Positions 22,482 through 44,695 of a stretch of DNA of 64,000 nucleotides are shown here, in pieces. Source of the stretch: Nitrospirales bacterium (GTDB lineage: Bacteria > Nitrospirota > Nitrospiria > Nitrospirales > UBA8639); assembly GCA_963555755.3 (NCBI GenBank), contig OY820905.2, positions 4,032,001-4,096,000 of the forward strand, given 5' to 3'. How positions within the stretch are numbered: position 1 is the stretch's first letter; every line of letters begins with the position of its first letter. Both the position numbers and the translations under genes were made by a program. The notes under the pieces were generated by a model that was not told the origin of the DNA, searched no databases, and saw only the letters and a program-made list of their open reading frames with translations.

Positions 22482-22492
22482 GTTCTGGTTAA

Positions 22493-22649
22493 GGGTTCGC
22501 ACAAGAATAACTTCCCATGTTTGGGCGTTGATCCATCCCGTCTGGCGGCGTTGCTCGTCCTTTCCATACGAGGAGTATGCGCAGTCCTCCCGCCTTGCCA
22601 GACAGGTGTCTCAGCACCCAAACATGGGAAGTTATTCTTGCGCGAACCC
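22493..22649. mobile_element. MITE family C (157 bp)
   Basis: GGGTTCGC(A/G)CAAGAATA IRs, TAA duplication; copies at 31836-31992 and 40735-40891. Confidence 0.88.
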
Positions 22650-22833
22650 TAAGTAACGGACCGCGGATAGTCTGAAAAAGGCATACAGTCAATATGAGAA
22701 AAACCTCCTAGAGAAATGATCTTACGACCCTCCCAGGGAGGTGTCAAGAAATCATATGGGTGCGTGACTCAGGACGACACTGTAGAAGCGCGTTCCTTGC
22801 AACCCGCACAATGGCTACTTAGAATGGCGAATA

Positions 22834-24169: not shown

Positions 24170-25012
24170 ATGAAACTCTCTTCGACGTTCGTGCCAGATG
24201 ATGATTTGAACATACAACTCAGTGCGGCTAAGTCGCAGTTGGCCCTTTATGCCAAAGATCTGAACGAACTGCTGGTTCGCGAGCAGAAGAAATCGAGAAA
24301 ACTCGAGGCGACAAATAAACAGATGCAGGCGTATGCACAAGATTTACAAGCTGCGTATCACGCGGAACGCCGAAAGACCTCTGAACTCGAAAAAGCATAC
24401 GCCGATACGGTCGTCCGGCTCACGCTCGCGTCACGATATAAAGACGAAGAAACCGGAACGCATATTCAACGGTTGAGCCATTATTCCAAGTCACTGGGGT
24501 TGTGTGTTGGGCTCAGCGAAGACGAAGCCCAACTTATTTTTGATGCGGCGCCGATGCACGATGTGGGCAAGGTCAGCATCCCGGACATGATCATGCAGAA
24601 ACGTGGGCCTTTGAATGAGCAGGAATGGGAAATCGTTAAACGACACCCGGTATTCGGAGCCAATCTGTTAGCAGGATCGCCCTCGCAGTTGTTGGAGACC
24701 GCAAGGGAAATTGCGCTGACGCATCATGAACGCTGGGATGGGACGGGCTATCCCCAAGGTTTGAAGGGAAACGATATTCCCCTTGGCGGGCGCCTGGTCA
24801 TGTTGGTCGATACCTATGATGCCTTGCGCAGTCGACGGCCGTATAAGCCGGCGTTCACTCATACCAAGGTGTGCGACATCATGCTCCATGGCGATGACCG
24901 AACGCGGCCCACGCATTTCGATCCACAGTTGCTCGACGCGTTTCGAGAAATCCACGAACAATTTGATGTGATTTTTTCAGAGATCGCGGAGGAGGGAACG
25001 GCTGAAGGCTGA
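24170..25012 (+). CDS. HD-GYP phosphodiesterase with coiled-coil N-terminus
   Basis: MHDVGK, HHERWDGTGYP, RRPYK. Confidence 0.93.
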   Translation: MKLSSTFVPDDDLNIQLSAAKSQLALYAKDLNELLVREQKKSRKLEATNKQMQAYAQDLQAAYHAERRKTSELEKAYADTVVRLTLASRYKDEETGTHIQRLSHYSKSLGLCVGLSEDEAQLIFDAAPMHDVGKVSIPDMIMQKRGPLNEQEWEIVKRHPVFGANLLAGSPSQLLETAREIALTHHERWDGTGYPQGLKGNDIPLGGRLVMLVDTYDALRSRRPYKPAFTHTKVCDIMLHGDDRTRPTHFDPQLLDAFREIHEQFDVIFSEIAEEGTAEG

Positions 25013-26649: not shown

Positions 26650-27501
26650 ATGTTTAGAATTAGAAAACGCCCCATAAAGCCTGAGAAAGACCCGGAGCTG
26701 TACAACGTGTTGGAGAATTACACGGATTTCGATCCTCCAGGAAATGTCATGGTGTGTGCCATGACCTGCGACGAAGACATCGAGCATCATGCGAAAATCC
26801 TGGGAGGAAGTTATGGGATTCCCGTTGAAGACATCCAGGCCTTGCTGGAGACAGGTGGGCTGTATACGTATCCGCAGTCAGGAGGTGTGGTCACCCGAGG
26901 GTTGTTTGTGTGCAAGGTCGATCCGACAGGTGAGGCGCCTAAACAAACCTGGGTATTGGATTTGCAACAAACAGCAGAAACCGAGCAATTGGCGCGGTTT
27001 TCAGACATTACCCTGATTGAAGCTGCCGAGCGTGTGTTTTATCGTGGTTTGCCCAAAGAATTGCAAACCCGACTCACACAAAAAAATCTGGGGCTGGATT
27101 ATTCCAAGCTCGATCGGTCTGTGGCCAAAGGTGGGGACATCACCTATATCGATTTTCGAAAAGATTGGTCCCCGTATTTCAAACGCAAATGCACCATGCC
27201 CAATGGATCAATGGTGGAGACTGGAGGCATTCAGGAATTCGCGACGTTGCATGGAATTACGGTTTCGCAAGCCGAAGAGCTGATGGATCAGGGCGGGACA
27301 CTCGAAATTGAAGATGGTGTGCTCGCATGTCAGGTGATCAACAACCAACCCACCGTCGCGCGATTCAATAGCAAACAATACGCCAAAGCCAAAGAGTTAA
27401 TGGAATCCAAAGACCTGCATATCATGGATGCGTTGAGCGAAATGGCGCTCAATGATCCTATTTTGATGCGTGCGCTTCGACGTATCGAGCGAGAGAATTA
27501 A
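26650..27501 (+). CDS. Hypothetical protein with internal duplication
   Basis: 283 aa; two similar GI.V.....L...GG...G...C.V segments. Confidence 0.75.
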   Translation: MFRIRKRPIKPEKDPELYNVLENYTDFDPPGNVMVCAMTCDEDIEHHAKILGGSYGIPVEDIQALLETGGLYTYPQSGGVVTRGLFVCKVDPTGEAPKQTWVLDLQQTAETEQLARFSDITLIEAAERVFYRGLPKELQTRLTQKNLGLDYSKLDRSVAKGGDITYIDFRKDWSPYFKRKCTMPNGSMVETGGIQEFATLHGITVSQAEELMDQGGTLEIEDGVLACQVINNQPTVARFNSKQYAKAKELMESKDLHIMDALSEMALNDPILMRALRRIEREN

Positions 27502-28110: not shown

Positions 28111-29267
28111 CTAACTTGATTGGTCAGTCTCTCCCCGGAACAACTGCACGTAAGCGGCGAAAATAAAAAGCCGATTTCGTTTTTGTCCAGTCATCTCACG
28201 CAGAACATCAAGTTTTATGAAATCTGTGATAAGGGCTGCCGCGGTGTTGGTCTGCACTTTGAGGCGTTCGGCCACTAATTTGATGGTTACCACTGGGTAT
28301 TCATACAACAGTCGCATAAGGGTCTGAGCGTTGTGTATACGTCGGGCATGGAAGGTGGGCATGACTTCGCGTTCTAGACCTTCTTTGAGGGTGAGAATGT
28401 TCTTAAAGACCTGACTGGATTGAGCTGCTGTTTCGGAAATGCCCAGAAGAAAAAATCGCAACCAGGGTTCCAGTTTGTTGGTGGTTCGCACAGCCATGAG
28501 TTGATCATAGTATTCGGCTTTATGGCGCTCGAAAAAATCAGAGAGTAGAGCGCAGGCTTGTGCAACAGGCCGAAGCTGACCAAATATAAGACAATGAGTA
28601 GGCGCCCCAGACGTCCATTTCCGTCCAGAAACGGATGGATGGTCTCAAATTGATAGTGGATGATGGCAATCTTGATCAGGTGCGGCACATGGATGGCTTC
28701 ATTGTGCATGAACTGTTCAAGGTCACTCATCAAATCTGGCACGTGATCGTGGTGAGGCGGAATAAAGGTCGCGTGTTTGAGGTTGATGCCAATCCAGTTT
28801 TGGCTCGTCCGAAAATCTCCAGGAAATTTGTGTTTTCCCCGCACGCCTTGTAAGAGCACAGCGTGGGTTTCCTTTATCAAGCGATTTGACAAGGGTAGTG
28901 TGGGCAGTTGTTGAATAGCATAATTGGTGGCTTTGATATAATTCTGCACCTCTTGCCAATCCAGACGTTTTTCCGGATCGACATCGCTTTCATTGACTAA
29001 GGCCTCATCGAAGTTGGTCTGAGTCCCCTCGATTCGACTGGAGGTGGTTGCTTCTTTGGTGATATGCATCCGGATAAAAAAGTCTACATCCGGGATGAGT
29101 TGGGAATAGGCATTCAGTTCACCAAGGAGCAGAGTGGCTTCTTCTAGCAAGGTGAGAGTTTGTGGGTCTACTTGCCATTCTTTATTGATTGCCGTGGGGA
29201 GGAAGGTTTTGTATTCGTACTCCTGCTCGTAAGATCCTGCGTGGAAGGTATTGATATTTATAGGCAT
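28111..29267 (-). pseudogene. fic: Fic-family protein, frameshifted near 28545
   Basis: [23 protein letters not shown](L)SDFFERHK restored by adding one C; C-terminal wHTH in the other frame. Confidence 0.85.
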
Positions 29268-29629
29268 TTTTTCAGCATGGCTACAATTTGATATTGCCAA
29301 GTCATTTATGTCAATTTGTGACCATTAACTGACATAAGCGAAATTATATGTCAACTCATTTGTTGGTGCATAAACACAGATTCAGGGATGTGGGGTCAAA
29401 TGCGAGGTGGGTTCAGGCCTAGATATGGGGTCATTGTCGATTCGTTCTGTTGTCAGGGATATCCTCCATGCAGTGGCGGACTGATTGCAGGTGATAATCT
29501 CCTCTTTAACGAGGCGGAAATTGGGGTGCCGGTCATTAAAAAAAGGGTCAATCTTATTTATTAATTGATTGGGAAGTGGCCTATATTTTTTTAACGTAGA
29601 AATTGCAGTTAGGCGCGATGTAGTTCAAG

Positions 29630-30460: not shown

Positions 30461-30590
30461 CGTGATTTAAATCGTTCACGCCAAAGATCAAAAAAAGAAA
30501 TCGGACTAATTTCTACCAACCTCTCGGTTATCCTAGCGTGTCTTTAGGAAACGTCAAGGTAGCCGAAAAAGAAGGCGAAGGCATGGTTAA

Positions 30591-30750
30591 GAGCCTGTCC
30601 GAGATTAGACGAATCTACTGAGGATGCGCTGGTTTGAGTCAGATGTTTCGATCCTTTTCGTTGAATAGTCCCACTATTCGCCTCAAACAATCGAAACATC
30701 TGACTCAAACCAGCACTCCCTCGTGACGATCGCTAATCTCGGACAGGCTC
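30591..30750. mobile_element. MITE family D (160 bp)
   Basis: Perfect 18-bp IR GAGCCTGTCCGAGATTAG. Confidence 0.85.
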
Positions 30751-30788
30751 CTAGCGGGTATCTTCTCCAATTACTATAAAGGTTTCGG

Positions 30789-31592
30789 ATGATAATTGAA
30801 CAGGAAACACGGCGTGATCTCGAATACACGTTGGCAAAGATCGAGAGAGAGTCGGATCTGCTCGTGAAAACGGTGACGGATGCCGCCACCGCCGTGAAAA
30901 AAATTCGCAGCGCAGCCAGTGTGGGAGACTTTCAAAAGCTTCGAGCTGCGCTGGAGGAAGCAAACCAAGCCGCCTCCCGGCTTCAGCAGGGCTTGGAAGC
31001 GACGACCCATAGTTGGGAGTTTGATGAGGTGGCCTATCTGTCGGGGGTTGATTTTCAACAGGACATGTTGGTTATGGCCGAACAGATGGGGGTTGATCTT
31101 ATTGAGCACGAGGGGGTGTTGTTTGCCTACCCCGCGCTAGTTCGGATTCTTCCTAAAGACATGGCGGTCACCATCGATCGCGTTCGTGAAACACGGCTGC
31201 GACCTTCCCACTTGATCAAACGGTTAAAAGATTTACAAACGAGACCGTATCGATTCAAATCCCATGAATTTGTGGCGATCTTGTATGCGGCCTATTCCAT
31301 TGCGGTTGGGATTCGAGGCAAGCATCTTCTTGGAACCGGCATTGTGATTCCGTTAATGGAGATTTATGATTTATTAACGATGTTGCCGCGACAATCATTT
31401 GAGTATACGCGGCAAGAATTTGCACGAGATCTCTACTTCCTCGATAAAAGTGGTGTGACGAAAACGAAAAAGGGACACCAACTTCACTTCCATGCCAGTA
31501 CTGGAATCAAAGACGCAACCAAGACCTTGAGTGTGATTACACAGGGTGGACGGTTGCGGACGTATTACGGCACATCCTTTACTCCTGCGTAG
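30789..31592 (+). CDS. Hypothetical protein (coiled-coil N-terminus), candidate partner of DUF2791-like ATPases
   Basis: 267 aa; RLRPS and YTRQEFARDLYFLD motifs; upstream of the ATPase remnant. Confidence 0.7.
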   Translation: MIIEQETRRDLEYTLAKIERESDLLVKTVTDAATAVKKIRSAASVGDFQKLRAALEEANQAASRLQQGLEATTHSWEFDEVAYLSGVDFQQDMLVMAEQMGVDLIEHEGVLFAYPALVRILPKDMAVTIDRVRETRLRPSHLIKRLKDLQTRPYRFKSHEFVAILYAAYSIAVGIRGKHLLGTGIVIPLMEIYDLLTMLPRQSFEYTRQEFARDLYFLDKSGVTKTKKGHQLHFHASTGIKDATKTLSVITQGGRLRTYYGTSFTPA

Positions 31593-31787
31593 GAAAACGT
31601 TAGACGGTAGGCGGGAGTCGGGAGGTAGTCTATCTCTTTTCCCCTCTTTCGCCTCACGCCTTTCGTCTCACAAGGGTCACAAGGGGCATGAGGTGCTGTT
31701 GATCGAAGTTTGACTCCTTCAATCGATCCTCTTCTGGCCCGTGCAAGAATTTTGGAACCCTTCCGATAGCTTTAGGGGTAGGAGGCG

Positions 31788-32043
31788 AAAGGGCAAACTG
31801 CCTGAGAGGGCAGGACGCAACGCCAAGAGACCCGAGGGTTCGCGCAAGAATACCTTCCCATTTTGGGGTGCTGAGACACCCGTCTGGCAAGGTGCGAGGA
31901 CTGCGCATACTCGTGGTATGTACGGGACGAGCAACGCCGCCAGGCGGGATGGATCGACGCCCAAAGAAGGGAAGTTATTCTTGCGCGAGCCCTCAGTAGA
32001 AGGGGGACGAGCATTCTCCTTTCAGGGTTGGACTGGTTGCACC
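31788..32043 (+). ncRNA. c-di-GMP-I (GEMM)-like riboswitch interrupted by a MITE
   Basis: GGGCAAAC-TGCCT-GAGA-GGGCA-GGACGCAACGCC; second stem GCCA..ACCC / GGGT..TGGT completed after the MITE. Confidence 0.6.
31836..31992. mobile_element. MITE family C
   Basis: GGGTTCGCGCAAGAATA...TATTCTTGCGCGAGCCC. Confidence 0.88.
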
Positions 32044-32193
32044 GTTCCATTGTGTATACCCTGTCCTTGAATGCCCGCTGGCGGGCTCTTCTACCTTTTC
32101 TCCTCCACACAACATTGATTTGAAAGGAAATATACTGATGGTTGCGTTGGTCTATATCGTGTGGTCGTACTTCAAGGGAAAGAGAGGATCGTC

Positions 32194-32509
32194 ATGAACA
32201 TGTTATCCCAGGATTGGTTGGCGGTGATCCAGAAAGAATATGTCCAGAATTACCTGCGACAGGGGGGAACCGCCAACCATTCCTTCTGGGGAACGGTTGT
32301 CCAGTAGGCGCATGCGTGAATATGTGAAAGGGTGGATCACGGAGTGGGATCTGAAGCGACTGGCTCCGGAAGAAGCCGTGGATCTCGAAGTGATACCATT
32401 GCGGCCCAGTTATACAGAAGACACGGAATTGGAAACTCCTACCGAAGGGGATCAGGTTGGTGTTGGTACTGAGGCCTATGCGGCGACGCCAGAGTATGTC
32501 ACGGCGTGA
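32194..32509 (+). pseudogene. Internally deleted paralogue of the DUF2791-like ATPase at 41987-44695
   Basis: N-terminal WLAVIQKEYVQNYLRQGG joined out of frame to C-terminal RMREYVKGWITEWDLKRL. Confidence 0.85.
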
Positions 32510-32527
32510 GTAGTTGTTGAGGATATT

Positions 32528-33832
32528 GTGAACCTTCGTGAACGATTCTCGGTGGTCGGTCAAGTCATGAATCAGGCGATCGCCCGTTTTATGGATCCGT
32601 TGTATGAGCGCATGGTCCTTGTGCTCACGGTTCTGTTTTGCTCAAGTTTGGCTCTCATGCTGCTTCAGGTGTCCCACTTGCAAGGGGATGTGATTGCCTC
32701 GATGGCGATAGCCGATGCCCGGGTGTACACCGAAGCCTTGGATGCCCTGCAGGGTTTGTATTCAAGCGATATTGTGCAACGGGTTCGGTTTCACGATTGG
32801 TACAACATCTATTCATGGACGGCCTTGCTTCTCGTGATTTGGGTAGGTGGCTTAGCCCTCGTTATTAGCAAATTCCGTCCAGTACCAGAAGAATTAGAGC
32901 ATCGGGTTCTGGAACGAACCGGAGACCTTCGAGATGCCAACCTTGAGCTGGAACGTCAAATAGGTGAACGCCGCCTGGTAGAAGAAGCGCTGCGCCAAGC
33001 CCACTTGGATCTCGAACAACGGGTGCACGACCGAACGGCCAAGCTCGCGGAAGCGAACACTGAACTTATGAGAGAAATTCGTGATCGGCAACGAGTTGAA
33101 GAGGATATGTGTAAGGTGAATGTGGATTTGTTGCAACGGACCACACAGTTGGAGTCATTCAATAAAGAGCTGGAGGCGTTCAGCTACTCGGTCTCGCATG
33201 ATTTGCGTGCTCCGTTGCGTGGCATTGACGGGTTTAGCCAAGCCGTTCTTGATGACTATGGTGACAAGCTGGATGACACGGGCAAGCAGTATTTGCAGCG
33301 CGTTCGCGAGGCGAGTCAACGCATGGCCAAACTCATTGATGCCATGTTGAACCTGGCGCGGTTGATCCGGGCGGAGTTGACTTTTGAGTCGGTTGATCTG
33401 TCAGCCATTGGTCAATCTGTCGTTTCGGACCTGAGCAAGGCTGATCCCGAACGTCAGGTGGAGATCGTGGTGGCCGATAATCTTCGGACCAATGCGGATC
33501 CGGATCTGACCAGAGTGGTGCTCGAGAATTTGCTGGGGAATGCGTGGAAATTTGCCAGTCACGAAGAATTCGCCAGAATTGAATTAGGGCTGACCTATCA
33601 TTATTCCCAGCCTGTCTTTTTTGTCCGAGACAATGGCGTGGGGTTTGATATGACCTATGCAGATAAACTGTTCGGGGCTTTTCAACGGTTGCATGCCATG
33701 AGTGAGTTTCAAGGAATCGGGATTGGTCTAGCGACCGTGCATCGTATTATTCTACGCCATGGGGGCCGCATTTGGGCAGATGCCTCCGTGGGCAAGGGGG
33801 CAACATTTTTCTTTACCTTGGGGAACTGTTGA
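32528..33832 (+). CDS. Membrane sensor histidine kinase (Cph1/BphP-type transmitter)
   Basis: FSYSVSHDLRAPLRG, NLLGNAWKF, GIGIGLA; two TM helices. Confidence 0.9.
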   Translation: MNLRERFSVVGQVMNQAIARFMDPLYERMVLVLTVLFCSSLALMLLQVSHLQGDVIASMAIADARVYTEALDALQGLYSSDIVQRVRFHDWYNIYSWTALLLVIWVGGLALVISKFRPVPEELEHRVLERTGDLRDANLELERQIGERRLVEEALRQAHLDLEQRVHDRTAKLAEANTELMREIRDRQRVEEDMCKVNVDLLQRTTQLESFNKELEAFSYSVSHDLRAPLRGIDGFSQAVLDDYGDKLDDTGKQYLQRVREASQRMAKLIDAMLNLARLIRAELTFESVDLSAIGQSVVSDLSKADPERQVEIVVADNLRTNADPDLTRVVLENLLGNAWKFASHEEFARIELGLTYHYSQPVFFVRDNGVGFDMTYADKLFGAFQRLHAMSEFQGIGIGLATVHRIILRHGGRIWADASVGKGATFFFTLGNC

Positions 33833-33942
33833 AAAAAGCCGCCAGCTGCGTTCTCATTGCTCGGAGGACTCAACGTACGCAGCGTACGCCTCGTCATCCT
33901 CGCTGCTTGCGGCCTTGCCGGACGACTTTTTTCAACAGCCCC
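33822..33942 (+). mobile_element. MITE family A
   Basis: CTGTTGAAAAAAG...CTTTTTTCAACAG IRs. Confidence 0.8.
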
Positions 33943-33975
33943 TTTAGCTACTCTGGAAAATGAGGGAGGCAGGTC

Positions 33976-34425
33976 ATGAGTGAAAGAGTCATTTTGTTAG
34001 TGGAAGATCATCCTGACGATGAAGAGCTGACCATGCGTGCTCTGAAAAAGAACAACATTCTCAACAAGGTGGTGATCGCGCGTGACGGGGTGCAAGCCCT
34101 GGAATATCTGTTTGGCACGGGTGCTCATGCCGGGCGTGATGTGAGTGAGATGCCTCAGCTCATTCTCTTGGATTTAAAGCTGCCAAAGATTGATGGATTA
34201 GAAGTGTTGCGACGATTACGGGCAGATGAGCGAACGCGGTTTTTGCCCATCGTCATTTTGACCTCGTCAAAAGAAGAACAAGATTTGCTCAAAAGTTATA
34301 AACTTGGAGCCAATAGTTATGTTCGCAAACCCGTGGATTTTGTCGAATTCACCCAAGCCGTTCAGCAGCTTGGGTTATACTGGCTCATTCTCAATGAATC
34401 GGCTCCCAAGGCCAAAGTCCGGTAG
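33976..34425 (+). CDS. Single-domain response regulator (Rcp1-like)
   Basis: [28 protein letters not shown]. Confidence 0.93.
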
Positions 34426-34435
34426 CGAGGTTAAA

Positions 34436-34733
34436 GTGGGGTTTTGCCCCCACGCGACGAGGCCCCTTCGGCAAGCTCAGGACAGCCCTGTTGTTTCGGC
34501 AAAAGTGCCCAAAACCATTTTCACCCGTGCGCGGCCCCTCCGATCCTGCTCAGAAGCAGATTCTCCGGGGTCCTTCCGCCTCCACCCCGAACCCTTCGAC
34601 TCCGCTCAGGATAGGTCAAGATGGCTCAGAAACTCGCGGAGTCTGTCCTGAGTGGAGTCGAAGGGCTCAAACAGCCCTCGCCGAAAAATCGATTCGGGGC
34701 TCCGGCTCCGCCGCACCCAACGCGAGAACCCAC
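34436..34733. repeat. Composite REP/MITE element
   Basis: GTGGG...CCCAC ends; internal inverted pair CCCTTCGACTCCGCTCAGG / CCTGAGTGGAGTCGAAGGG. Confidence 0.6.
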
Positions 34734-35298
34734 ACAGAAAACAACCCGTTCCTTTAAAAGAGGACGCTACTTTTTAAAAGGGCACTACGATTGACTGAAT
34801 TGGTTAACGAAAGGGAATGAGCCATCCATCCCCCTCTGGCCTTTCGACCCTCTCCAGTTGTCATGTCGAGTGAAAGGAGACATCTCTTTGTGGGGATTGG
34901 AACACCAGCCCAAGCGTGACGGGAAGGGGGAGATTTCTCTCAAGGGTCGAAATGACTAAAGTGGGGAGATGATGGTCAGTCCAAAATCTATTGGTCTGGT
35001 ACGGAGTTCGCGCCGAATTCCAACAACGCGTGGTTGTATGAGTGGAACCATGCCTTCCGTATGATCCTTGGGTTCCTCCCAAGGGAGTCGTTGGTGAGTC
35101 CTCGTTCTCACAGGCTTTTATCTTCCTGGATCTTGCCACCTCCCTTCCTCATCTGTTCCTTCGTCTGACAGACTGTCAAAATATCCCATATTTTTTGAGA
35201 CACGGCTTTATAAAGGCTTTCCCTTAATTTTTTTCTGGTATTGAAAAATCATATGAATTTCAATGTGTTGTGTTAGGCAAGCAAGAAAGGCTCTGCTT

Positions 35299-35314
35299 TG
35301 GCATACCCTTTGCT
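35299..35314 (+). promoter_or_regulatory. Sigma-54 promoter
   Basis: TGGCATACCCTTTGCT (GG-N10-GC). Confidence 0.65.
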
Positions 35315-35409
35315 CTTTTGTTTAGAACAGCAAGAAGAAGTGCAAATGTAAGCGAGGATTTTTGAGGTGCCTCTGGGAAGGTGCCGCCGAGGAGGACAAG
35401 GAGGGTACC

Positions 35410-35757
35410 ATGGCACGGTTGGCCATTTCTCATATGACCATAAGCCGCAATCTAGACGAATCTTGGCTGACGTCTTCTGTATGGGACGACGAGTCTGTTG
35501 CGGATCTCAAACGGGACCGTCTTTTAAAATGTCATACCGGAGGATTGGCAAAATGTTCTCAGTGTGGCACCGATGTGAAGATTCATGTTTCGCCAAAACG
35601 GAATCCACACTCTGGAAAGCTCGGACGCATCGTGACATTAAAGGACCATGATCTCTGCCGGCGATGTTGGCGGCAAATCATTCGAAACTGTCGCGAAGCG
35701 ATGCTCACGTACGAATGGCATGTCCCGGCACTTGCTGAACCACGAGAAGTTGCTTAG
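35410..35757 (+). CDS. Small CxxC...CxxC putative zinc-binding protein
   Basis: CSQC and CRRC; GGAGGG SD. Confidence 0.6.
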   Translation: MARLAISHMTISRNLDESWLTSSVWDDESVADLKRDRLLKCHTGGLAKCSQCGTDVKIHVSPKRNPHSGKLGRIVTLKDHDLCRRCWRQIIRNCREAMLTYEWHVPALAEPREVA

Positions 35758-35812
35758 CGACGGATATAGAGTAAAAACTCATACCCCATCACCCTTCCCG
35801 ATTCCCCGTATC

Positions 35813-37318
35813 TTATAGCTGCGCGCACACTGATTTCACTTCAGTGTAGAGATCCAAGGCCTCGTGTCCCATTTCTCGTCCCCAGCCTGATTGTTTGAAT
35901 CCGCCGAAGGGGAGTGCGGCATCGAAAATATTGTGACAGTTGATCCACACGGTTCCCGCGCGAAGTTGAGCCGCAAGACGATGGGCCTTACCGATATCCT
36001 TGGTCCAGATGGACGCCGCTAAGCCGTAGATACTGCCATTCGCTTTCGCCACGACTTCTTCCAGATCAGTAAAGGGTTCCGCACAGACCACTGGACCAAA
36101 AATTTCTTCCTGGATCACTTTCATGCTTTGATTCGTGTTCACCAGAACGGTGGGCTCAATAAAATACCCTCTCTCGCCCACCCGTCCACCGCCCGCAATG
36201 GCTTTGGCCCCTTCGTTCATGCCTGCCTCTAAATACCCTAAGACTCGTTGTTGTTGTTCCTCTGATACTAAGGGACCCATGTCCGTCTGCGTATCCATGC
36301 CAGGTCCGATTTTGATCTGTTTGGCTTGGTCCGCCACCCCGGCAACTACTTTGTCAAATATGCTTTTTTCAGCGTAGATCCGCGACCCTGCACAACAACA
36401 CTGTCCGTGGTTAAAGAAGATGGCGTTGGCCACCCCGGGGATGCTGCTCTCCAAGTCGGCATCGGCCAATACCAGAGTCGGCGATTTGCCGCCCAATTCC
36501 AGGGTAACTTTTTTCAGATTGCCGGATGCCGCGTGAAGAATTAATTTTCCGACTTCCGTTGAGCCGGTGAAAGCCACTTTGTCCACATCGGGGTGGGCGG
36601 CTAATGCGGCACCGGCTGTTTCGCCAAATCCTGTCACAATGTTTACCACTCCCGGAGGAAATCCTGCCTCACAGAAAAGTTGGCCCAGCAGTAGGGCCGA
36701 CAGTGGGGTTTGCTCGGCGGGTTTCAAGATAATCGTACAGCCAACTGCGAGGGCGGGGCCTAATTTCCAAGCAGCCATGAGCAGGGGGAAATTCCAAGGG
36801 ATAATTTGTCCGACTATCCCGACAGGTTCACGTAATGTGTAGGCATGAAATTGAGCGCCGGGGGCATAGGGAACCGAAATGGGAATGGTGTTGCCTTCAA
36901 TCTTCGTTGCCCATCCGGCCATGTAACGGAACAGATCAATGGCCAGTGGCACATCAGCCACCCGGGCGATGGCAACGGGTTTCCCGTTATCAAGTGATTC
37001 CAGTTGTGCAAAGTCTTCCAACCTCGATTCCATGAGATCGGCTAATTTCCACAGCAGTTTCCCGCGTTCTGACGCCGTCAGCTTTCGCCAAGCTCCTTGG
37101 TCAAAGGCTCGACGTGCCGCTCGCACGGCCAGGTCGATATCGCCCTGTTGTCCCTCAGGGATTTGACACATGGTCTCACCTGTCGCGGGGTTCAGGGTCG
37201 AAAAGGTTTGGCCGGAGAGAGCTGTGACCCAGTTTCCGTCGATGAGCATGGTGTGATCGGTGGCGAGAAATTGTTGGACAGAGGGAGAGAGCGGGGTGTC
37301 AGTGGCAGCAACACTCAT
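35813..37318 (-). CDS. NAD-dependent aldehyde dehydrogenase
   Basis: IIPWNFP, FTGSTEVG, LELGGKSP, GQCCCAG, EEIFGPV. Confidence 0.96.
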   Translation of the reverse strand: MSVAATDTPLSPSVQQFLATDHTMLIDGNWVTALSGQTFSTLNPATGETMCQIPEGQQGDIDLAVRAARRAFDQGAWRKLTASERGKLLWKLADLMESRLEDFAQLESLDNGKPVAIARVADVPLAIDLFRYMAGWATKIEGNTIPISVPYAPGAQFHAYTLREPVGIVGQIIPWNFPLLMAAWKLGPALAVGCTIILKPAEQTPLSALLLGQLFCEAGFPPGVVNIVTGFGETAGAALAAHPDVDKVAFTGSTEVGKLILHAASGNLKKVTLELGGKSPTLVLADADLESSIPGVANAIFFNHGQCCCAGSRIYAEKSIFDKVVAGVADQAKQIKIGPGMDTQTDMGPLVSEEQQQRVLGYLEAGMNEGAKAIAGGGRVGERGYFIEPTVLVNTNQSMKVIQEEIFGPVVCAEPFTDLEEVVAKANGSIYGLAASIWTKDIGKAHRLAAQLRAGTVWINCHNIFDAALPFGGFKQSGWGREMGHEALDLYTEVKSVCAQL

Positions 37319-37501
37319 GGCAGTCCTCCAAGTTCAGATATGTGTAATCGAGTGAATGGGTTATGAAAACAAACAGGCGATGGACTTCATAATAAATTAT
37401 GACGCGATATCTCTGGTGACTGCAACTCGAAAGGGGTTGGGAATACATGGACGAAACTAAATTTGGTGAAAATCGTGGTGGGTTGAACCAAGAAATACCA
37501 T

Positions 37502-37703
37502 TTGGATCACAAAAGTCCGCGCCAGCTCTTGGCGAAATACAAAACTGTCTCCTCACCACCAGGGATGACTTTCGATCCTTCCACCCTTGTCATTTCTACC
37601 AAGGGTCGAAATGACAGACCCGAGGTGGCCACGACTTTTTGTATTTCACCATGCACACCAATATCTTCCACGTCTTTTTTGTGCCCAACTGCCGATTCTA
37701 GGC
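37502..37703. mobile_element. MITE backbone copy (as 13464-13894) with a different insert
   Basis: TGGATCACAAAAGTCCGCGC start and shared right half; a CGAAATGAC-type hairpin sits at the CACCAC slot. Confidence 0.75.
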
Positions 37704-37760
37704 TGGAAAACCCTGAAATTGTGAATGCTTTTTTGGAACGATGAAAAAAGCGTTTTCAAG

Positions 37761-37832
37761 GGACAGGACAGGGACAGGGGTCAAATCTTGGACAGAGACA
37801 GGGACAGGGGTCAAGGACAGGGGTCAAATCTT
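37761..37832 (+). repeat. GGACAGGGGTCAA short-repeat (REP-like) cluster
   Basis: Three GGACAGGGGTCAA units plus partial copies. Confidence 0.7.
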
Positions 37833-37903
37833 TGGTTGACTAATTAAATAAGGTTCCCGCCTCGTCTACTGAGGGAATTCCGCCCCCACATAAAATAATC
37901 AAT

Positions 37904-39331
37904 TTATCTTTTGTTCTTTTCCATTTTACTGACCCACCAGATCGCCAGGCAGGAAAATAAAAACGCGGGAACCAGTTCATAGATCACGGCGTCGGACAGC
38001 CCGGAAACTTTCCAGACGATTGTGGTCAGAAACCCTGTGAGCATGCCGGCGACCGCACCCTGAATGGTGACGTTTTTGGAGTAAAGGGTGAACAAAATCA
38101 CCGGACCAAAACTCGCCCCCAGTCCCGACCAGGCAAACAGCACGAACCAGAAAATCACCCGCGTCTCCATAAGCGCAATCGTCATTGCCCCCAGTCCCAG
38201 TACCAAAATAGTGATTCGGCTAACACGCAGAATTTTCTCGTGCGACAGGGTGTGCTTGAGGATTTTCGTGTAAACATCGTGCGCCACCGTCGACGTGGCG
38301 ACGATGATTTGGGCTGAAACCGTGGACATGATGGCCGCCAGCACGCCCGTCAGGACCACCGCCGTCACCACCGTCGGCAGTAACGCCTCCGCCGCTTTGG
38401 GAAACAACTGCTCAGGGTCTTCCAGTCCGGGGAACAAGGCGTTGCCCGCCACCCCCAGGACAATAGCGGAACTATATATTACCAAACCCCAGGAGATCGC
38501 GATCCACACTCCCCGCTCGATGGCCTTTGTGTCCTTTGCGGCCATGTAACGGTTGATGACGTGCGGCTGGCCCGGATACCCCAAGCCGATTCCCAGCAGG
38601 CCCACCATCGACCCCAAAAAAGCGGCAGAGGTTTTTCCGCCCATCCAGGCTAATGTTTCCGGTGACACCTGATGGACCTGCTGAACCATGCCGCCAAATC
38701 CGCCCAGATTCCACACGGCAACGAAAGCGAGAACCGCGATGCCCAGGACCATTATCAGGCCTTGAATAAAATCCGTCCACACCACCGCGCGGAACCCTCC
38801 CATCATCGTGTAAAGAATCACGATGGCCCCGCCGATGGAAATGCTCAGCCAATGCGGGATGCCGAAAATAGCGTCAAAGGTTTTGCCGATGGCGGTGAAT
38901 TGGGCGGCGACATAGGCCATCATGCAGGCGAATATGATGACGACGGAAATGATTCGCAGGATGCTTGATTTATCATTGAAATGGGATTCAAGGTAATCGG
39001 GAACCGTGAGAGCGTGTTCCTCATGGGAATGCTTGCGCAATCTTTCAGCAATAAAAAACCAGTTGATCGCGTATCCCAGCAGGCAACCGGGCAAAAACCA
39101 CATGGCTGACAGCCCGTCTTTATAGGCGAGACCCGCGGTCCCCAATACCGCCCAGGCGCTCTCGGAACTGGCGGTCGAGGAAATGGCCGTGACCCAGGCT
39201 TTCAGCGATCGGTCAGCCAGGAAAAAATCGGCGGGGGAACTTGTACTCCGGGAGGTCACGTAACCGATCCCCAGCATCAGCAGGACATATAAAAAGAAAA
39301 CCGTTCCGATGACCACAGTGAGTTCCGTCAT
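37904..39331 (-). CDS. putP: Sodium/proline symporter (SSS family)
   Basis: FFLADRSL, GGFRAVVWTDFIQG, GYPGQPH, AWSGLGASFGP. Confidence 0.85.
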   Translation of the reverse strand: MTELTVVIGTVFFLYVLLMLGIGYVTSRSTSSPADFFLADRSLKAWVTAISSTASSESAWAVLGTAGLAYKDGLSAMWFLPGCLLGYAINWFFIAERLRKHSHEEHALTVPDYLESHFNDKSSILRIISVVIIFACMMAYVAAQFTAIGKTFDAIFGIPHWLSISIGGAIVILYTMMGGFRAVVWTDFIQGLIMVLGIAVLAFVAVWNLGGFGGMVQQVHQVSPETLAWMGGKTSAAFLGSMVGLLGIGLGYPGQPHVINRYMAAKDTKAIERGVWIAISWGLVIYSSAIVLGVAGNALFPGLEDPEQLFPKAAEALLPTVVTAVVLTGVLAAIMSTVSAQIIVATSTVAHDVYTKILKHTLSHEKILRVSRITILVLGLGAMTIALMETRVIFWFVLFAWSGLGASFGPVILFTLYSKNVTIQGAVAGMLTGFLTTIVWKVSGLSDAVIYELVPAFLFSCLAIWWVSKMEKNKR

Positions 39332-39532
39332 GACCCGGCATTATAACGGAAAACCCTTCTATCGATAAAAGTTTTTCCGGTAACAGTGCCTTTCACCACC
39401 CGCTGGCTTATTTCCAGTTTTTTGCTCATATAGCCTCCTCATTCCATTTTGGATCAGAGGAAACAGAATCCCTGTATTACAGGCCCTTTGTTAGGGAAAC
39501 CATCGCTAACCTGTTACAGATTGAAGGACATT

Positions 39533-40048
39533 ATGAATAAAAAAGAACTGGTAGAAAAATTATTGGCGGCAAAAAAAGCATCAGGAAAAACTTATGACCA
39601 AATTGCGAAAGCTCTTGGCCTTTGCAATGTTTATGTGGCTTAGTTGTTTCACGCACAGGCGCAACGGCACAAGGATACGGAGAAAAACCTCGTTAAACTG
39701 GGGCCCGGCATCGATAAAAAAGCGCTAACGGAGATGCGGAAATGTCCGATGCGTTCCTATGATCCCGATATCATCCAGGAACCCACCATCTACCGGCTGA
39801 CTGAAGTCTGCATGCACTATGGTGAATCGCTCAAAGAAATTAACAACGAAAAATTCGGTGACGGCATCATGTCCGCCATCGATTTCAAGTTAACTGTGGA
39901 CAAGGTCAAGGGAAGCCAAAAAGAAGACCGTGTGGTCATTACCATGAATGGAAAATTTCTGCCTCATATTGAAAAAACTCTAGTAATCCATGCAGTCATA
40001 CGATTTTTAATCCATAGAAGAGAAGTGGCAGAAAATCTGGGTGAATAG
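39533..40048 (+). pseudogene. cynS: Cyanase with an in-frame TAG at 39641-39643
   Basis: [28 protein letters not shown]-terminal HTH in the same frame upstream of the TAG. Confidence 0.85.
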
Positions 40049-40326
40049 GAATTTAGGGTCTTCTCCCAAGTGAGTGGGTAAATTTGGGCGAGTCATTTTC
40101 TGAAAGGCTCGCTGGAGAAGAGGTTGGTGGATTTTTCTACCGTGGGAAAAGTGGCCAGGCGTTCTTGAGGCGTCACGCTGCTCATCCCTCCCCTTTGTAA
40201 GGGGAGGCTAGGTGCTGGCGCGCCGAAGCGTTTTGGCGAAGGCGTGGGGTAGAGCCCGTGGCAAGGAGCGAGCCACAGGCATGCTGAAAGCCCGGACCGA
40301 ATTCGACTCCAGGCTGCTGAGGTGGT

Positions 40327-40530
40327 TGGGATGTGCAGACACAGATGATAATGATTCCCCAGCAGGCAATAGGCCAAGACCTCGACGCCCCATAGCGTAT
40401 GGGTGTCACTCAACACCTGGAGAAAGGTTTCATAATCGGAGGGATCTCGAAAGACAGACTGACGTGCCAGGCCACGGTTCATGGCATGATAGACCGCGCC
40501 CGGATATTCAATGCGGAGAGGTCGGGCCGT
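40327..40530 (-). pseudogene. Truncated REP-associated tyrosine (Y1/HUH) transposase
   Basis: ARPLRIEYPGAVYHAMNRG...YCLLGNHYHL; first codon is ACG; truncated after the HUH motif. Confidence 0.85.
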
Positions 40531-40532
40531 AA

Positions 40533-40974
40533 GGGTCTGTCACGAAATAACCCGTACAATTGGGAGGCCCATCTTTGGCCCGGGGCGGCGTTGCTCCTCG
40601 GTCACAGAGCCCCGCTCTGCTCCCTCGTCGCGCCTTGCCCCGATCACAAATCTGGGCCTCCCAATTGTCCCGGTTATTTCGTGACGGACCCTTAGCGCAT
40701 CTGGCACAATACAAAAATGTCTTATCACCACGGAGGGTTCGCGCAAGAATACCTTCCCCGGTTTGGGTGCTGAGACACCTGTCTGGCAAGGCGCGAGGAC
40801 TGCGCATACTCCTCGTATGGAAAGGACGAGCAACGCCGCCAGGCGGGATGGATCGACGCCCAAACCGGGGAAGGTATTTTTGCGCGAACCCTAAGGTGAC
40901 CACGACTTTTTGTATTTCACCATGCACCCCAATATCTTACACGGCTTTTTTGCGCCCAACTGCCGTTTCTAGGT
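40533..40974. mobile_element. Nested MITE: family B (40533-40691) and family C (40735-40891) in the backbone right half
   Basis: Matches 13509-13894 and the family C copies; abuts the TAA of the next gene. Confidence 0.85.
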
Positions 40975-41742
40975 TTATTGCGGGCGAGTCCGCTCCCAGT
41001 ATTCCCTCAGGGCTTCTGCGGCTGCCCCGTCTTGGTAGACAACCCGAAGAATCAGGTTTCCGAATGGACGACGCACAATTTTAAGAATGACTGATCCGTC
41101 GGCAAACCCTATGATCAATTCGTTGTCCGTGCCTTCCTGAAATCTGGTGTCTTCTGATTCGGTTGGCACGTGGCTGACGGGGTATTGTGACACCAGGGTT
41201 TCATACAGTTCTCCAAACAATTCTCTGGTGTGGTTGCCCATGTCGATATCGATTTTGGTGAGTTCTGCCGTTGGGGAGGGGGGAGATTTCGTGGTGCTGT
41301 TTGACTCATTCGCACCATAGGTCAGGGCGAAATAACGATTTTTCCCTAAGAGGTCATAGAGGCACTCTGTGTTGCTCGAACAGCCTTGAAGCGCTTCCAC
41401 TTCGCGGGGGGTCATGCCCAATTTCAATTTTCCAAATCCCTCAATGGTGTTGGCTTGGGTTAAAGCTGTCCCTCCCAACGCGACCATGAAGGGTATCAGG
41501 ACAAGTGAACACACCACTCTGGTCACGCGCTGTACGGGCCTGTTGAATATTTCACTCCAATGGCCAATAAAAGCTCCAGATGAGTCTCGTATCGTCAATG
41601 GGGGGGGATGTTCAAAAAAGTCCGTCCAGCAAGGCCGCAGCCCTTTTGACGCGCGGAGCGTACTCATAGTACGTGAGCACGGCAAAATGGCGAGAACGCC
41701 GCTGGCGGCTTTTTTCAACATTCCCTGTACGGATGCAAACAT
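40975..41742 (-). CDS. Exported hypothetical protein with an in-frame MITE insertion
   Basis: AAGGA SD, ATG at 41742; signal peptide restored when 41536-41725 is removed. Confidence 0.7.
   Translation of the reverse strand: MFASVQGMLKKAASGVLAILPCSRTMSTLRASKGLRPCWTDFFEHPPPLTIRDSSGAFIGHWSEIFNRPVQRVTRVVCSLVLIPFMVALGGTALTQANTIEGFGKLKLGMTPREVEALQGCSSNTECLYDLLGKNRYFALTYGANESNSTTKSPPSPTAELTKIDIDMGNHTRELFGELYETLVSQYPVSHVPTESEDTRFQEGTDNELIIGFADGSVILKIVRRPFGNLILRVVYQDGAAAEALREYWERTRPQ
41536..41725 (-). mobile_element. MITE family A, long form (190 bp)
   Basis: GGGCCTGTTGAA / GGGAATGTTGAA IRs; TGTAC duplication. Confidence 0.85.
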
Positions 41743-41986
41743 GTGGTGTTCCTTTCGAAGGTACTCCAGGGAACAATTGGTCTTGAAAGAGTGGCAAAAC
41801 CATGTGTTTTCTTGATGCACCCTAACAAATCGGGATAGAGGGCTCCAACCCCCGTGTGGGGAAGTTTGTAGACGGGCTTCTCCATTTCTCCTCACATGTG
41901 CAGTGACGAAAAAGTATCAAGAATTGCCAAGAAACACCGATAAAGTCTAATAAGTCCTCAGAACGGGGCAGAACCCGCAGGAATGA

Positions 41987-44695
41987 GTGAATGTGGCGCC
42001 ATATAGTGAAGGCCAAACTCAGTCATTTTCGGAATCAGATGCTTGCGAATTCCATGAAAGGATCAACCGTGGCATGAGTGCAATTGTGGAATCGCTAAAT
42101 CGTATTCAGGCAACGAGAACGGCGGAAACGCTCAGTGACGAGACCCCCTCGGCCTTAGCAGAACCGGTGAGGGAAACAGCCGTGGACTCGTCTGAAACGT
42201 GCTCATCGGATTTGCGTGATTTCTTTAAGCCTCAGGTTCCCGAAGCCTCACCAAACGAGAATCCTATCTCATCAGTTTATCCCGCCGCCACTGAGCAGGA
42301 TTTGGCTGTATTAACCATGGAGCAGTGGTTGAGTATACTTCAGCAGGAATATGTGGGTTCGTATCTCAGGGATGGAGGAAGTTCGATCAAATTCGCGATT
42401 TGTGCTGGTGAAGATTTACATCTTTCGCTTCAGTCTGAGTTGAAAGCGATGGCCAAAGCCGAGGGACTGGTGTTTGTTCGTATCGATGCCCGATACACCA
42501 AGATTCATATGATGGATCGGTTGTTTTTCAAAGTGGCAAAACAGATCGATTGGGATGAACTCGCCTATAATTTTCTCGTCGCGCTCATACGCGACAAAGG
42601 GTATCAGGTTCCAGCCCAATGGGAAGATTTCAGTCTGCAATACCTCGCACAGCTCAATGACCGAAAGGAAGCGCTTCTGTGGAAAGATGTGCAAACGTGG
42701 GTGGAGCAGGCCATTGAAGGCGACCTGAACCTCTGTCAGGAATTCCGGATGGCCATGGTGTGTGTGTGCATGGCCCAGTTACAAGTCAGTGACGCGGCTC
42801 TCAATGTGGCACAATCCGTCAAAGACTGGCTGCGGGGTGAACTCAGGTTGATCTCCAGCGTGAAACCTGCGCTGATCTTTCAAAAGATTTCTCGGCATAA
42901 TGGTCGGCACATGTTCACGTCATTGACGCAATGGTTACGGCGAGCGAAGAAACCGGGGCTGGGGATCACGATAGACATTTCACGATACCTGGAGGCGAAG
43001 AAACCGAGTGAACCGGACACCACCTTCTATTACAGCTCTTCCGCGGTTCTTGATCTCTATGACACGCTACGCCAATTCATTGATGGCATGGATGATCATG
43101 CCGGGTGCTTGATAGTCGTTCTGGCCCCTCAAGAGTTTTTGAGTGATCGTCGCCGCGGCCTTGATCGATGTGAAGCGTTGAAACTGCGGATTTGGGATGA
43201 TGTGCGTGATACATATCAACAGAACCCTCTCGCCCCAATGGTGCGGCTTGCTGCATCGACTCCAGAGTCAATGTCCCATGCAGTAGGAAATGGCGCGATG
43301 CCACTTCACCAAGGTCGGGCCTCCCTCCGTGACCGGCGGGTGATTGAAGGATTGCGGTCTGGTGTGCCGAATCGAGATGTCATCCAGGCCTTGGGGTGTT
43401 ACCAACCGGAAGTGGAGGGCCGGTTCCAACACATGTTGACTGCGATGGATCAACATGCCGCCGAAGGTCGATCGACGCGAGGCATGATCGTGGAAGGGGG
43501 GTTCGGTACCGGGAAGTCACATGTGTTGGCGTATTTACAACATCTGGCATTGCAGCAGCAGTATATTTGCAGCCAAGTCATTATTAGTAAAGAAACCCCG
43601 CTGTACCATCCATTGAAAGTGTTCCTTTCTGCGATGGAGAATGCTGTGATGCCGGGTCATGCAGGCCAGGTGCTGGTAGACATAGCCAATCGCCTCGATG
43701 TCTGGAGTCCCGCCTACAAGGAATTATCCGACTGGGTGCATGACTATCGAAATGGAATGGATCAGCGGTTTGCCGCGACCATGTTTTTATTCCACCGGAT
43801 GTACAGCGAGCCCGAGCTTCGCCATCGCGTGATTCGGTTTTGGAGTGGCGACTCGTTGGCCATGAATGAAATTCGAACCAATTTGCGCCAATGCGGGGCG
43901 TATCAACAGTATTCCTTCGCCAGGATTCGTGAGGTCGATTTGGCCGTTCAACGGTTCCACTTTGCCGCCAAGCTGATGCGTGTGGCTGGGTATCGGGGTT
44001 GGGTGTTGTTTCTCGATGAGGCCGAACTCATTGGTCGATATTCCTTTGGCCAACGAATCAAATCGTATGCGGAATTAGGACGGGTCTTGGGTGTGTCCAC
44101 AGATGGCGGCATCCCAGGGCTCACTTCAGTGGTGGCGTTAACGGATGATTTTCAATCCGAGATCCTTGAAGCCAAAGGTGATCGGAGTCGGGTGCTTGAT
44201 GCCCTCGGCAAGGTCGGCACGAATGCCATACTTGAAAAACAGGCTGAAGAAGGGGTGCGGTTTATCCAATGGGATTCGACCTTGCTACGAGAGTTAACGG
44301 AAGTTCGTGTGGAGGAAGCCTATCATAAAATTCGACAGCTTCATCGCGCAGTGTACTGCGATAACCAGGAGTCCTTGGCTCAGGCCTATGACCTGCCGCC
44401 CATCGCCTTTACAGGCAAGCGAATGCGAGAATGGGTCAAGAGTTGGGTGACGGAGTGGGATCTGAAGCGGCTCCTGTCTCGGGATCATGTCGAAATCGAA
44501 ATCCGTTCGATCACACACGAGTACCAGGAAGATACAACCTTGGAAGCCTCGGCTGCAGAAGACATGGATCAGCCCTCAGTCGTTGAGTCAGAATTGCTAA
44601 AAACCTCTGAGGCTCTGGTTAAGCCCTCAACTATTTCGGTGAAGCGCAATCCCTTTGCCTCTTACCGTTCGGCATCACCTGAAGAAATTACCTGA
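41987..44695 (+). CDS. Tandem BrxD/DUF2791-like P-loop ATPase (degenerate domain fused to an intact domain)
   Basis: Second half: IEGLRSGVP, Walker A GGFGTGKSH, Walker B WVLFLDEAE; first half: LRQFID and EALKLRIWDDV without a Walker A; start uncertain. Confidence 0.75.
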   Translation: MNVAPYSEGQTQSFSESDACEFHERINRGMSAIVESLNRIQATRTAETLSDETPSALAEPVRETAVDSSETCSSDLRDFFKPQVPEASPNENPISSVYPAATEQDLAVLTMEQWLSILQQEYVGSYLRDGGSSIKFAICAGEDLHLSLQSELKAMAKAEGLVFVRIDARYTKIHMMDRLFFKVAKQIDWDELAYNFLVALIRDKGYQVPAQWEDFSLQYLAQLNDRKEALLWKDVQTWVEQAIEGDLNLCQEFRMAMVCVCMAQLQVSDAALNVAQSVKDWLRGELRLISSVKPALIFQKISRHNGRHMFTSLTQWLRRAKKPGLGITIDISRYLEAKKPSEPDTTFYYSSSAVLDLYDTLRQFIDGMDDHAGCLIVVLAPQEFLSDRRRGLDRCEALKLRIWDDVRDTYQQNPLAPMVRLAASTPESMSHAVGNGAMPLHQGRASLRDRRVIEGLRSGVPNRDVIQALGCYQPEVEGRFQHMLTAMDQHAAEGRSTRGMIVEGGFGTGKSHVLAYLQHLALQQQYICSQVIISKETPLYHPLKVFLSAMENAVMPGHAGQVLVDIANRLDVWSPAYKELSDWVHDYRNGMDQRFAATMFLFHRMYSEPELRHRVIRFWSGDSLAMNEIRTNLRQCGAYQQYSFARIREVDLAVQRFHFAAKLMRVAGYRGWVLFLDEAELIGRYSFGQRIKSYAELGRVLGVSTDGGIPGLTSVVALTDDFQSEILEAKGDRSRVLDALGKVGTNAILEKQAEEGVRFIQWDSTLLRELTEVRVEEAYHKIRQLHRAVYCDNQESLAQAYDLPPIAFTGKRMREWVKSWVTEWDLKRLLSRDHVEIEIRSITHEYQEDTTLEASAAEDMDQPSVVESELLKTSEALVKPSTISVKRNPFASYRSASPEEIT

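Follow-up and report, generated by a model that had tools for sequence, protein, structure and literature searches.

What does a BrxD-type ATPase, related to a component of the bacteriophage exclusion (BREX) defence systems, do outside a BREX locus? This question is raised by a locus of a Nitrospirales bacterium (assembly GCA_963555755.3, contig OY820905.2), where positions 4,032,001 to 4,096,000 of the forward strand, a stretch of 64,000 nucleotides, form the window of this analysis. The part under study is 30789..44695 of the window, the genome measures 4.62 Mb and is 99.4% complete, and its nearest named homologues are those of Nitrospirales. The element in question is a gene for a 902-amino-acid protein, in which two BrxD-type ATPase domains are fused, one Walker-dead and the other Walker-intact. 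The answer favoured here, at about even chances, is that the fusion descends from the core of a probably anti-phage cassette, stands without the helicase-nuclease genes of that cassette, and now acts as a domesticated, ATP-driven regulatory switch. This repurposing for regulation is considered likely because the helicase-nuclease genes are missing and the ATPase is conserved across the family.

A fused dead and live ATPase outside BREX

The fused gene lies at 41987..44695 on the plus strand and, according to the open reading frame (ORF) call, profile scans, alignment and tree, is the "solo" paralogue of its family. The protein consists of a variable N-terminal extension of about 105 residues, an N half (approximately residues 110-425) and a C half (approximately 445-860). 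Each half alone matches PF10923 (BrxC_BrxD, DUF2791) over the Pfam cut-off of 22.2 bits, the N half with 38.3 bits (E 1e-9) and the C half with 59.8 bits (E 3e-16). The Walker motifs are confined to the C half, with GGFGTGKS at residue 504 (Walker A, GGFGTGKSH, 43496..43522, plus strand) and LFLDE at residue 674 (Walker B, LFLDEAE, 44006..44026, plus strand). The Walker A lysine K510 is kept in 133/133 C halves, as is the Walker B residue D677, and E678 is kept in 132/133. The 135 aligned N halves carry a variable sequence in place of the P-loop and DI or DL in place of Walker B, and share the invariant residues R362, D366, G391, A397, L398, R401 and D404. The N half is a Walker-dead, and the C half a Walker-intact, BrxD-type ATPase domain, which confirms the first-pass annotation both in its description of the two domains and in their assignment to DUF2791/BrxD. 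Both halves are under purifying selection: in three pairs, two of which have saturated dS, the ratio of nonsynonymous to synonymous substitution rates (dN/dS) amounts to 0.08-0.22 in the N half and to 0.04-0.14 in the C half.

The invariant R401 of the N half (43187..43189, plus strand; 135/135) is a predicted arginine finger. It aligns with the arginine of the YEAxxSRL motif of SngB/BrxD-type proteins. In the N-half profile, the motif GLxRYEALKLRI lines up with GFKSYDALWSRI of a Walker-intact relative, and a true SngB reads GLYSYEAIQSRL at the matching place. The profile-profile alignment of the N and C halves is weak (E 0.003, probability 10%), with the Walker regions lined up. In the available text of PMC12839542, BrxD is described as an ORC/Cdc6-type AAA+ ATPase with the arginine finger before strand 5, without a DNA-binding domain and tightly linked to a helicase, for which it is proposed as a loader or activator. 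Membership of the ORC/Cdc6 clade, which is marked by Walker A/B, an arginine finger before strand 5 and a helical bundle, is possible for the fused protein, whose sequence shows Walker motifs in the C half and a candidate finger in the N half. A sequence search finds no relative of solved structure, and a promoter and terminator scan performs no better than chance level.

Comparison with BREX type 2 and its BrxD-BrxHI dyad shows the shared PF10923 domain, BrxD as the best PADLOC and NCBIfam match, and BrxHI-like Lhr helicases beside distant relatives of the module. The module differs from this dyad in the doubling of the ATPase, in the Walker-dead state of one copy, in the fusion found here, in a dedicated partner with a predicted winged helix, called U, and in the BrxD equivalog score (NF033438, 71.6 bits against a cut-off of 350). 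PglZ has no match in the genome (the control was positive in 2/14) and occurs in 2/61 related genomes, in both cases on other contigs, so that the homologues do lie outside BREX loci, as had been proposed. Beside the ATPase lie genes for a kinase, a receiver, RRM and Sel1 proteins and the like, with no adjacent BrxHI helicase. Therefore, the earlier statement that pglZ and a helicase are lacking holds for PglZ across the genome and for helicases adjoining the gene, and for PglX at the level of the neighbours: PglX, PglW and BrxC are not among the syntenic neighbours, and no dedicated genome search was made for them.

The Shango system consists of SngA (TerB-like), the ATPase SngB and the helicase SngC. 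It likewise uses a DUF2791 ATPase with a helicase and without BREX, and relatives of the module with two active ATPases, which serve as outgroup, have SngC/BrxHI-like helicases. In contrast, the SngB match of the fused protein is weak (32.7 bits, where a true SngB of the Nitrospirales family reaches 582.6), U has no SngA match, which the true Shango locus of the family has, and the ATPase is doubled, half dead and without a helicase. The module would thus resemble the BrxD and SngB modules in its working but belongs to neither BREX nor Shango. A canonical Shango-like locus with SngA, SngB and helicase is present in one genome of the Nitrospirales family (L170:7582-12110).

The partner gene and the wider cassette

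The partner gene U encodes 267 amino acids (30789..31592, plus strand) and has no family in Pfam, PADLOC or NCBIfam. Its fold is predicted as a helical hairpin, a CyaY/frataxin-like middle and a winged-helix-like C-terminus, based on confident AlphaFold models (predicted local distance difference test scores 86 and 90). The hairpin covers residues 11-76, the similarity of the middle domain is to CyaY/frataxin (Z 6.0, root-mean-square deviation 2.9, 73 residues aligned), and the last ~110 residues resemble many winged-helix domains, those of RPC62, ORC1 and kleisin C-termini among these, with Z of 4.8-6.1. With full U as with residues 78-267, Foldseek finds nothing at E 0.001 or better, the VIA search with full U matches the hairpin alone, and the ESM Atlas returns nothing but unnamed clusters for U and for the 188-amino-acid protein of the cassette described below. 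The U family comprises 885 clusters at 50% identity. Among the fetched loci with enough downstream DNA, for which one search with 262 confirmed matches contributed its best 80, a DUF2791 ATPase lies downstream of U in 110/111, and both the N and C domains follow in 102/103; one duplicate pair is contained in these counts, and the exception is a broken U. The suggestion that the 267-amino-acid gene travels with the ATPases is therefore well founded. The complex prediction for cognate U and fused ATPase gave a score of 0.02 and a mark of 0.32, and is used neither for nor against their binding.

Outside the Nitrospirales family, N and C are two separate genes. The usual split cassette consists of U, N, C, a gene for 188 amino acids and an SNF2 helicase, to whose C-terminus an Mrr nuclease is often joined; the 188-amino-acid gene and SNF2 are each found in 33/52 non-fused loci. 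Some loci hold U-N-C alone, with no further cassette genes. A remoter form has two Walker-intact ATPases, often with a BrxHI/SngC-like Lhr helicase. These forms make up a visible series: two live ATPases with Lhr, a dead and a live ATPase with SNF2-Mrr, and the fused protein without effector. The U-linked copy described below had, before its deletion, this order of U followed by dead and live domains, whereas the 188-amino-acid gene and the SNF2(±Mrr) effector are not found with the fused family. The effector of the split cassette shares its SNF2 + Mrr make-up with ZorD of the Zorya system, from which the cassette differs in that no ZorA, ZorB or ZorC is seen in split loci, the ZorD equivalog scores 147 against a cut-off of 1500, and the gene is missing from fused loci. 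The BREX-free module of partner, pseudo-ATPase and ATPase that had been postulated is thus real. Its stand-alone state appears derived, since the module usually has a helicase or nuclease effector outside the Nitrospirales family. The literature search, which most subscription papers and the supplements of PMC12839542 lay outside, found no description of U with a dead/live ATPase module.

The distribution of the split form is patchy, with 30/401 and 9/401 genomes in two other phyla, and the phyla are intermixed on the tree. Some split loci lie beside defence genes, namely a type I restriction endonuclease, HEC-01, DruE-like, SoFic-like and TIR-TPR genes and a DUF1156/PLD-helicase system. At 1e-12, without a control set, 16/97 flanking proteins of split loci match PADLOC, of which three are Lhr helicases belonging to the cassette itself and several are generic. 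At L183 and L185 two module types adjoin, a DUF2791 pair with Lhr helicase and Uma2-like nuclease gene being followed by U-N-C, and at L204-L207 the both-active form is followed by a giant (~1950 amino acids) fusion of Lhr and SF1 helicases. The 749-amino-acid ORF of L199, considered as a second fusion, was rejected as an ORF-calling artefact.

In the Nitrospirales family, the ATPase is found in 24/36 genomes and U in 18/36. On quick trees, the fused copies (n=56) form one branch, with a value of 97 in the Shimodaira-Hasegawa-like approximate likelihood ratio test, which splits into the solo, tandem-1, tandem-2 and single U-linked types. When rooted with the both-active relative (support 100; 15/38 rows), the fused branch is nested among the split forms. 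A constrained tree in which the split Nitrospirales locus L091 is forced into the fused clade is neither supported nor rejected (p 0.16 in the approximately unbiased test). The 188-amino-acid gene or SNF2 is nearby in 0/39 fused loci, and a single-protein query with the former matches in 0/36 family genomes. The genome under study has two full SNF2 cores elsewhere, unlinked to the fused gene; they match in the helicase core alone, at ~32% identity, and are without the N-terminal and Mrr parts specific to the cassette.

The solo copy has identical neighbours in 11/11 genomes of one branch. Its distances track those of the neighbouring conserved genes, among them genes which we take to be trmI and glnS (rho 0.73-0.88 in 8-10 genomes), similarly to the tracking among those genes themselves (0.69-0.91). 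In four genomes that are 90-100% complete (G020, G025, G029 and G036), the solo ATPase is present and U is unmatched. The plasmid collection searched with the C half and the viral contigs searched with U give no match. Directly 5′ of the solo ATPase, seven genomes of one branch carry a gene for 246 amino acids (L151:5134-5874 and orthologues) with no PADLOC match, which could be a replacement partner.

The riboswitch-led paralogue and its surroundings

About 10 kb upstream of the 902-amino-acid gene lies a second locus, in which the first-pass annotation had recognized U, a riboswitch-like RNA, a deleted ATPase copy, a histidine kinase and a receiver; all of these parts are present. The ATPase copy is a remnant of a U-linked fused paralogue (32194..32509, plus strand), from which ~2.0 kb is deleted at a 9-nucleotide direct repeat (32265-32273). 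As a result, 27 N-terminal codons (32194-32274) are joined out of frame to ~70 C-terminal codons (32297-32506). The remnant has 81% DNA identity to G003's single U-linked gene and no more than 39-50% protein identity to the 902-amino-acid protein, and is therefore no local duplicate. The proposal that the module was duplicated here does not stand, as the copies fall into two distinct, old clades of paralogues that are shared across the family. The deletion was also considered as an assembly artefact, and this was rejected because contigs from runs of two studies, one of which may be the source sample, cross the junction with 0 differences. A contig of a close wild strain has ~2.0 kb extra between two copies of the 9-nucleotide sequence and already contains the 159-bp repeat described below, and G005 likewise keeps both the stretch and the repeat. 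The loss is therefore recent and later than the repeat insertion.

The leader of the deleted ATPase contains a cyclic di-GMP (c-di-GMP)-I aptamer (31782..32044, plus strand), identified by a scan with RF01051 and by alignment to relatives. It differs from the intact RF01051 riboswitch in being split by a repeat and in leading a deleted gene. The repeat is a 159-bp palindrome (31835..31993, found by genome search and folding), similar to miniature inverted-repeat transposable elements or REPINs, with 166 genomic copies of at least 120 bp. It folds as one long hairpin (z -10.4) and sits in the P3 loop, both here and in G005. With 31.3 bits, the aptamer stays under the RF01051 cut-off of 35 because of this insertion; uninterrupted orthologues pass it in 4 of 14 loci scanned, with 49.2-53.2 bits, and the motif is also present in G005 and G011. 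Since the repeat folds on itself, the aptamer may survive the insertion, as judged from the predicted fold. The interpretation of the RNA element as a mere repeat was rejected, as both aptamer halves and intact orthologues are seen. By alignment to relatives, the ligand-contact positions G31792, A31819 and C32040 are kept, which we take to correspond to G20, A47 and C92. These three are named among the important bases of the c-di-GMP-I riboswitch in the accessible text of PMC9049102. An A-to-C change is found two bases past the A47 equivalent.

In the genomes that carry it, the aptamer is flanked by U on one side and the ATPase on the other, and the kinase begins within ~25-90 bp past the ATPase. 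It was not found in nine tandem-type loci, and five tandem-type genomes have none near their ATPase loci, though 5-8 such riboswitches elsewhere. The proposed second-messenger control thus finds real support in the riboswitch of one subclade of relatives, and it applies to the deleted copy alone: the c-di-GMP link is real but narrow, concerning the lost copy and not the 902-amino-acid gene. An HD-GYP gene (24170-25012) is syntenic, but 5.8 kb off with unrelated genes between. In genome G000 (C1, 272280-272913; L120, L121), two c-di-GMP-I riboswitches lie ~470 bases apart, and six score over the cut-off genome-wide.

The kinase (32528..33832, plus strand) has the Pfam domains HisKA and HATPase_c and lacks the Tll0287-like sensor domain that is present in the 576-amino-acid kinase of a tandem-type relative (L025:16220-17950). 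Its length is ~430-440 amino acids in the riboswitch subclade, which has apparently lost the sensor domain, against 570-630 in tandem-type relatives. The following single-domain response regulator (33976..34425, plus strand), assigned by Pfam, is syntenic family-wide. Two hypothetical genes, 26650-27501 (283 amino acids) and 35362-35757 (131 amino acids, with Cys pairs), belong to no significant Pfam family and are syntenic with the U locus in 11/18 and 12/18 loci, respectively.

Short palindromic repeat families occur genome-wide with tens to ~300 matches each, and in the window at 22492-22650, 30587-30755, 31835-31993, 33831-33950, 34440-34730, 40540-40975 and 41563-41730. The last of these lies inside a 306-amino-acid ORF (40975-41895) and inflates its N-terminus, as relatives have ~190 amino acids. 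A fragment at 40093-40482 (minus strand), for which tblastn gives 21 genomic pieces and Pfam no match, presumably resembles a REP (repetitive extragenic palindromic)-associated HuH transposase, and is possibly the mobiliser of the palindromic repeats. The Fic/DOC-family gene at 28111-29300 (minus strand; Fic_N and Fic domains) is apparently frameshifted into two overlapping ORFs. The cyanase gene cynS (PF02560; 39533-40048, plus strand) is interrupted at codon 37 by an in-frame TAG. Nitrite oxidisers are well known for their cyanase, and the strain may have lost it, as this is the sole genome copy by tblastn.

Possible roles of the fused ATPase

The mechanism proposed for the domesticated switch can be outlined as follows. 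ATP would be bound and hydrolysed by the C half alone, and the dead N half would, judging from its conserved motif, give R401 in trans to complete the active site; the fusion would therefore fix an alternating dead/live oligomer. According to its modelled fold, U may bind the ATPase and bring a winged-helix DNA-binding domain, a part not present in BrxD-type ATPases. Within the ancestral split cassette, such a core would load or activate the SNF2(±Mrr) or Lhr helicase on DNA, presumably in defence. In the Nitrospirales family, the pair was likely fused once and duplicated to up to three paralogues, and the effector would have been lost. In one subclade, the U-linked copy would then have been placed under the c-di-GMP-I riboswitch, directly ahead of the kinase and receiver. 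The strain under study retains intact the riboswitch-less solo copy and U, the U-linked ATPase being deleted. A more far-reaching version, put forward tentatively, is that a lineage of the nitrite-oxidiser type domesticated the sensing core of an immune cassette not yet described, composed of an obligate dead/live ORC-like ATPase and a DNA-binding winged helix on a separate protein. After fusion and triplication, this core would have shed its nuclease and come under c-di-GMP and two-component signalling as a regulatory machine that works on the chromosome.

Several observations weigh against the domesticated switch. The C half carries a well-kept arginine, R758 (120/133), which could be its own finger in place of one given in trans by R401. 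The winged-helix scores of U are modest (Z 4.8-6.1), though consistent. On the tree, the root lies on a long branch and the kin are not independent. The riboswitch is carried by seven genomes of one subclade, including the one under study, all of the single U-linked type; these genomes hold 5-8 c-di-GMP-I riboswitches anyway, and the motif scan finds none ahead of any solo copy, the 902-amino-acid gene included. The two-component link may be no more than synteny, since an RRM gene of opposite orientation stands between the ATPases and the kinase of tandem-type loci. Moreover, a helicase-less three-gene core is found in unrelated genomes (e.g., L094, L167, L168, L173, L182 and L195), and therefore the lack of an effector is not proof of a lost defence. 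The U-linked locus is also damaged in 3/4 of the same-genus genomes that have it, through the deletion in the present genome, a stop codon within U of G002 and two frameshifts in G005, the last two being possible errors of metagenome-assembled genomes.

The recurrence of helicase-less cores leads to a different explanation, according to which the module still defends against phages or plasmids, U with the dead and live ATPase being a self-sufficient core for which helicase and nuclease are optional. Such a core may sense DNA and then cause cell arrest or a replication block, with the riboswitch switching the defence on in aggregates. This explanation is possible but doubtful. It is consistent with the ZorD-like SNF2-Mrr and BrxHI/SngC-like Lhr effectors of the relatives, with the patchy split forms and their mixed phyla, and with the defence genes that flank some split loci, of which, however, the small PADLOC share (16/97, with own Lhr and generic proteins among them) is a poor sign. 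The family-wide retention, the fixed position and the three old paralogues are unlike typical defence genes, as is the persistence of the solo copy where U is not found. It is unlikely, in turn, that the fused ATPases load a host SNF2 or another helicase in trans for DNA repair or for remodelling of transcription complexes. Two full SNF2 cores are available elsewhere in the genome, the cassette has already swapped Lhr and SNF2 partners, and the loading or activating role proposed for BrxD in the available part of PMC12839542 would suit this task, but the host SNF2 genes, with their low identity, missing cassette parts and unlinked position, do not.

A decaying relic without current function is the least probable of the explanations. 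The damage within the genus, the repeat insertion in the riboswitch and the 12/36 family genomes in which the ATPase is unmatched point towards decay, and the U-linked locus does seem to be decaying in the genus while the solo copy is kept. For the 902-amino-acid gene this explanation is already largely refuted by its intact state, the purifying selection on both halves and the complete conservation of the Walker A lysine and R401. The domesticated switch, held at roughly an even chance, is accordingly favoured over continued defence, action on a host helicase and a relic.

The analysis defines a large unnamed family (885 U clusters) of BREX-free BrxD-type modules. Its series of forms offers a direct route to test the role of BrxD-type ATPases and the donation of an arginine finger by the dead copy. 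The Nitrospirales branch is a candidate for the domestication of an immune module, and strains that have naturally lost the riboswitch-led copy already exist for comparison. If the tentative wider version is true, this lineage would represent a transition from defence to housekeeping, and the ancestral cassette would be a new class of defence in many phyla.

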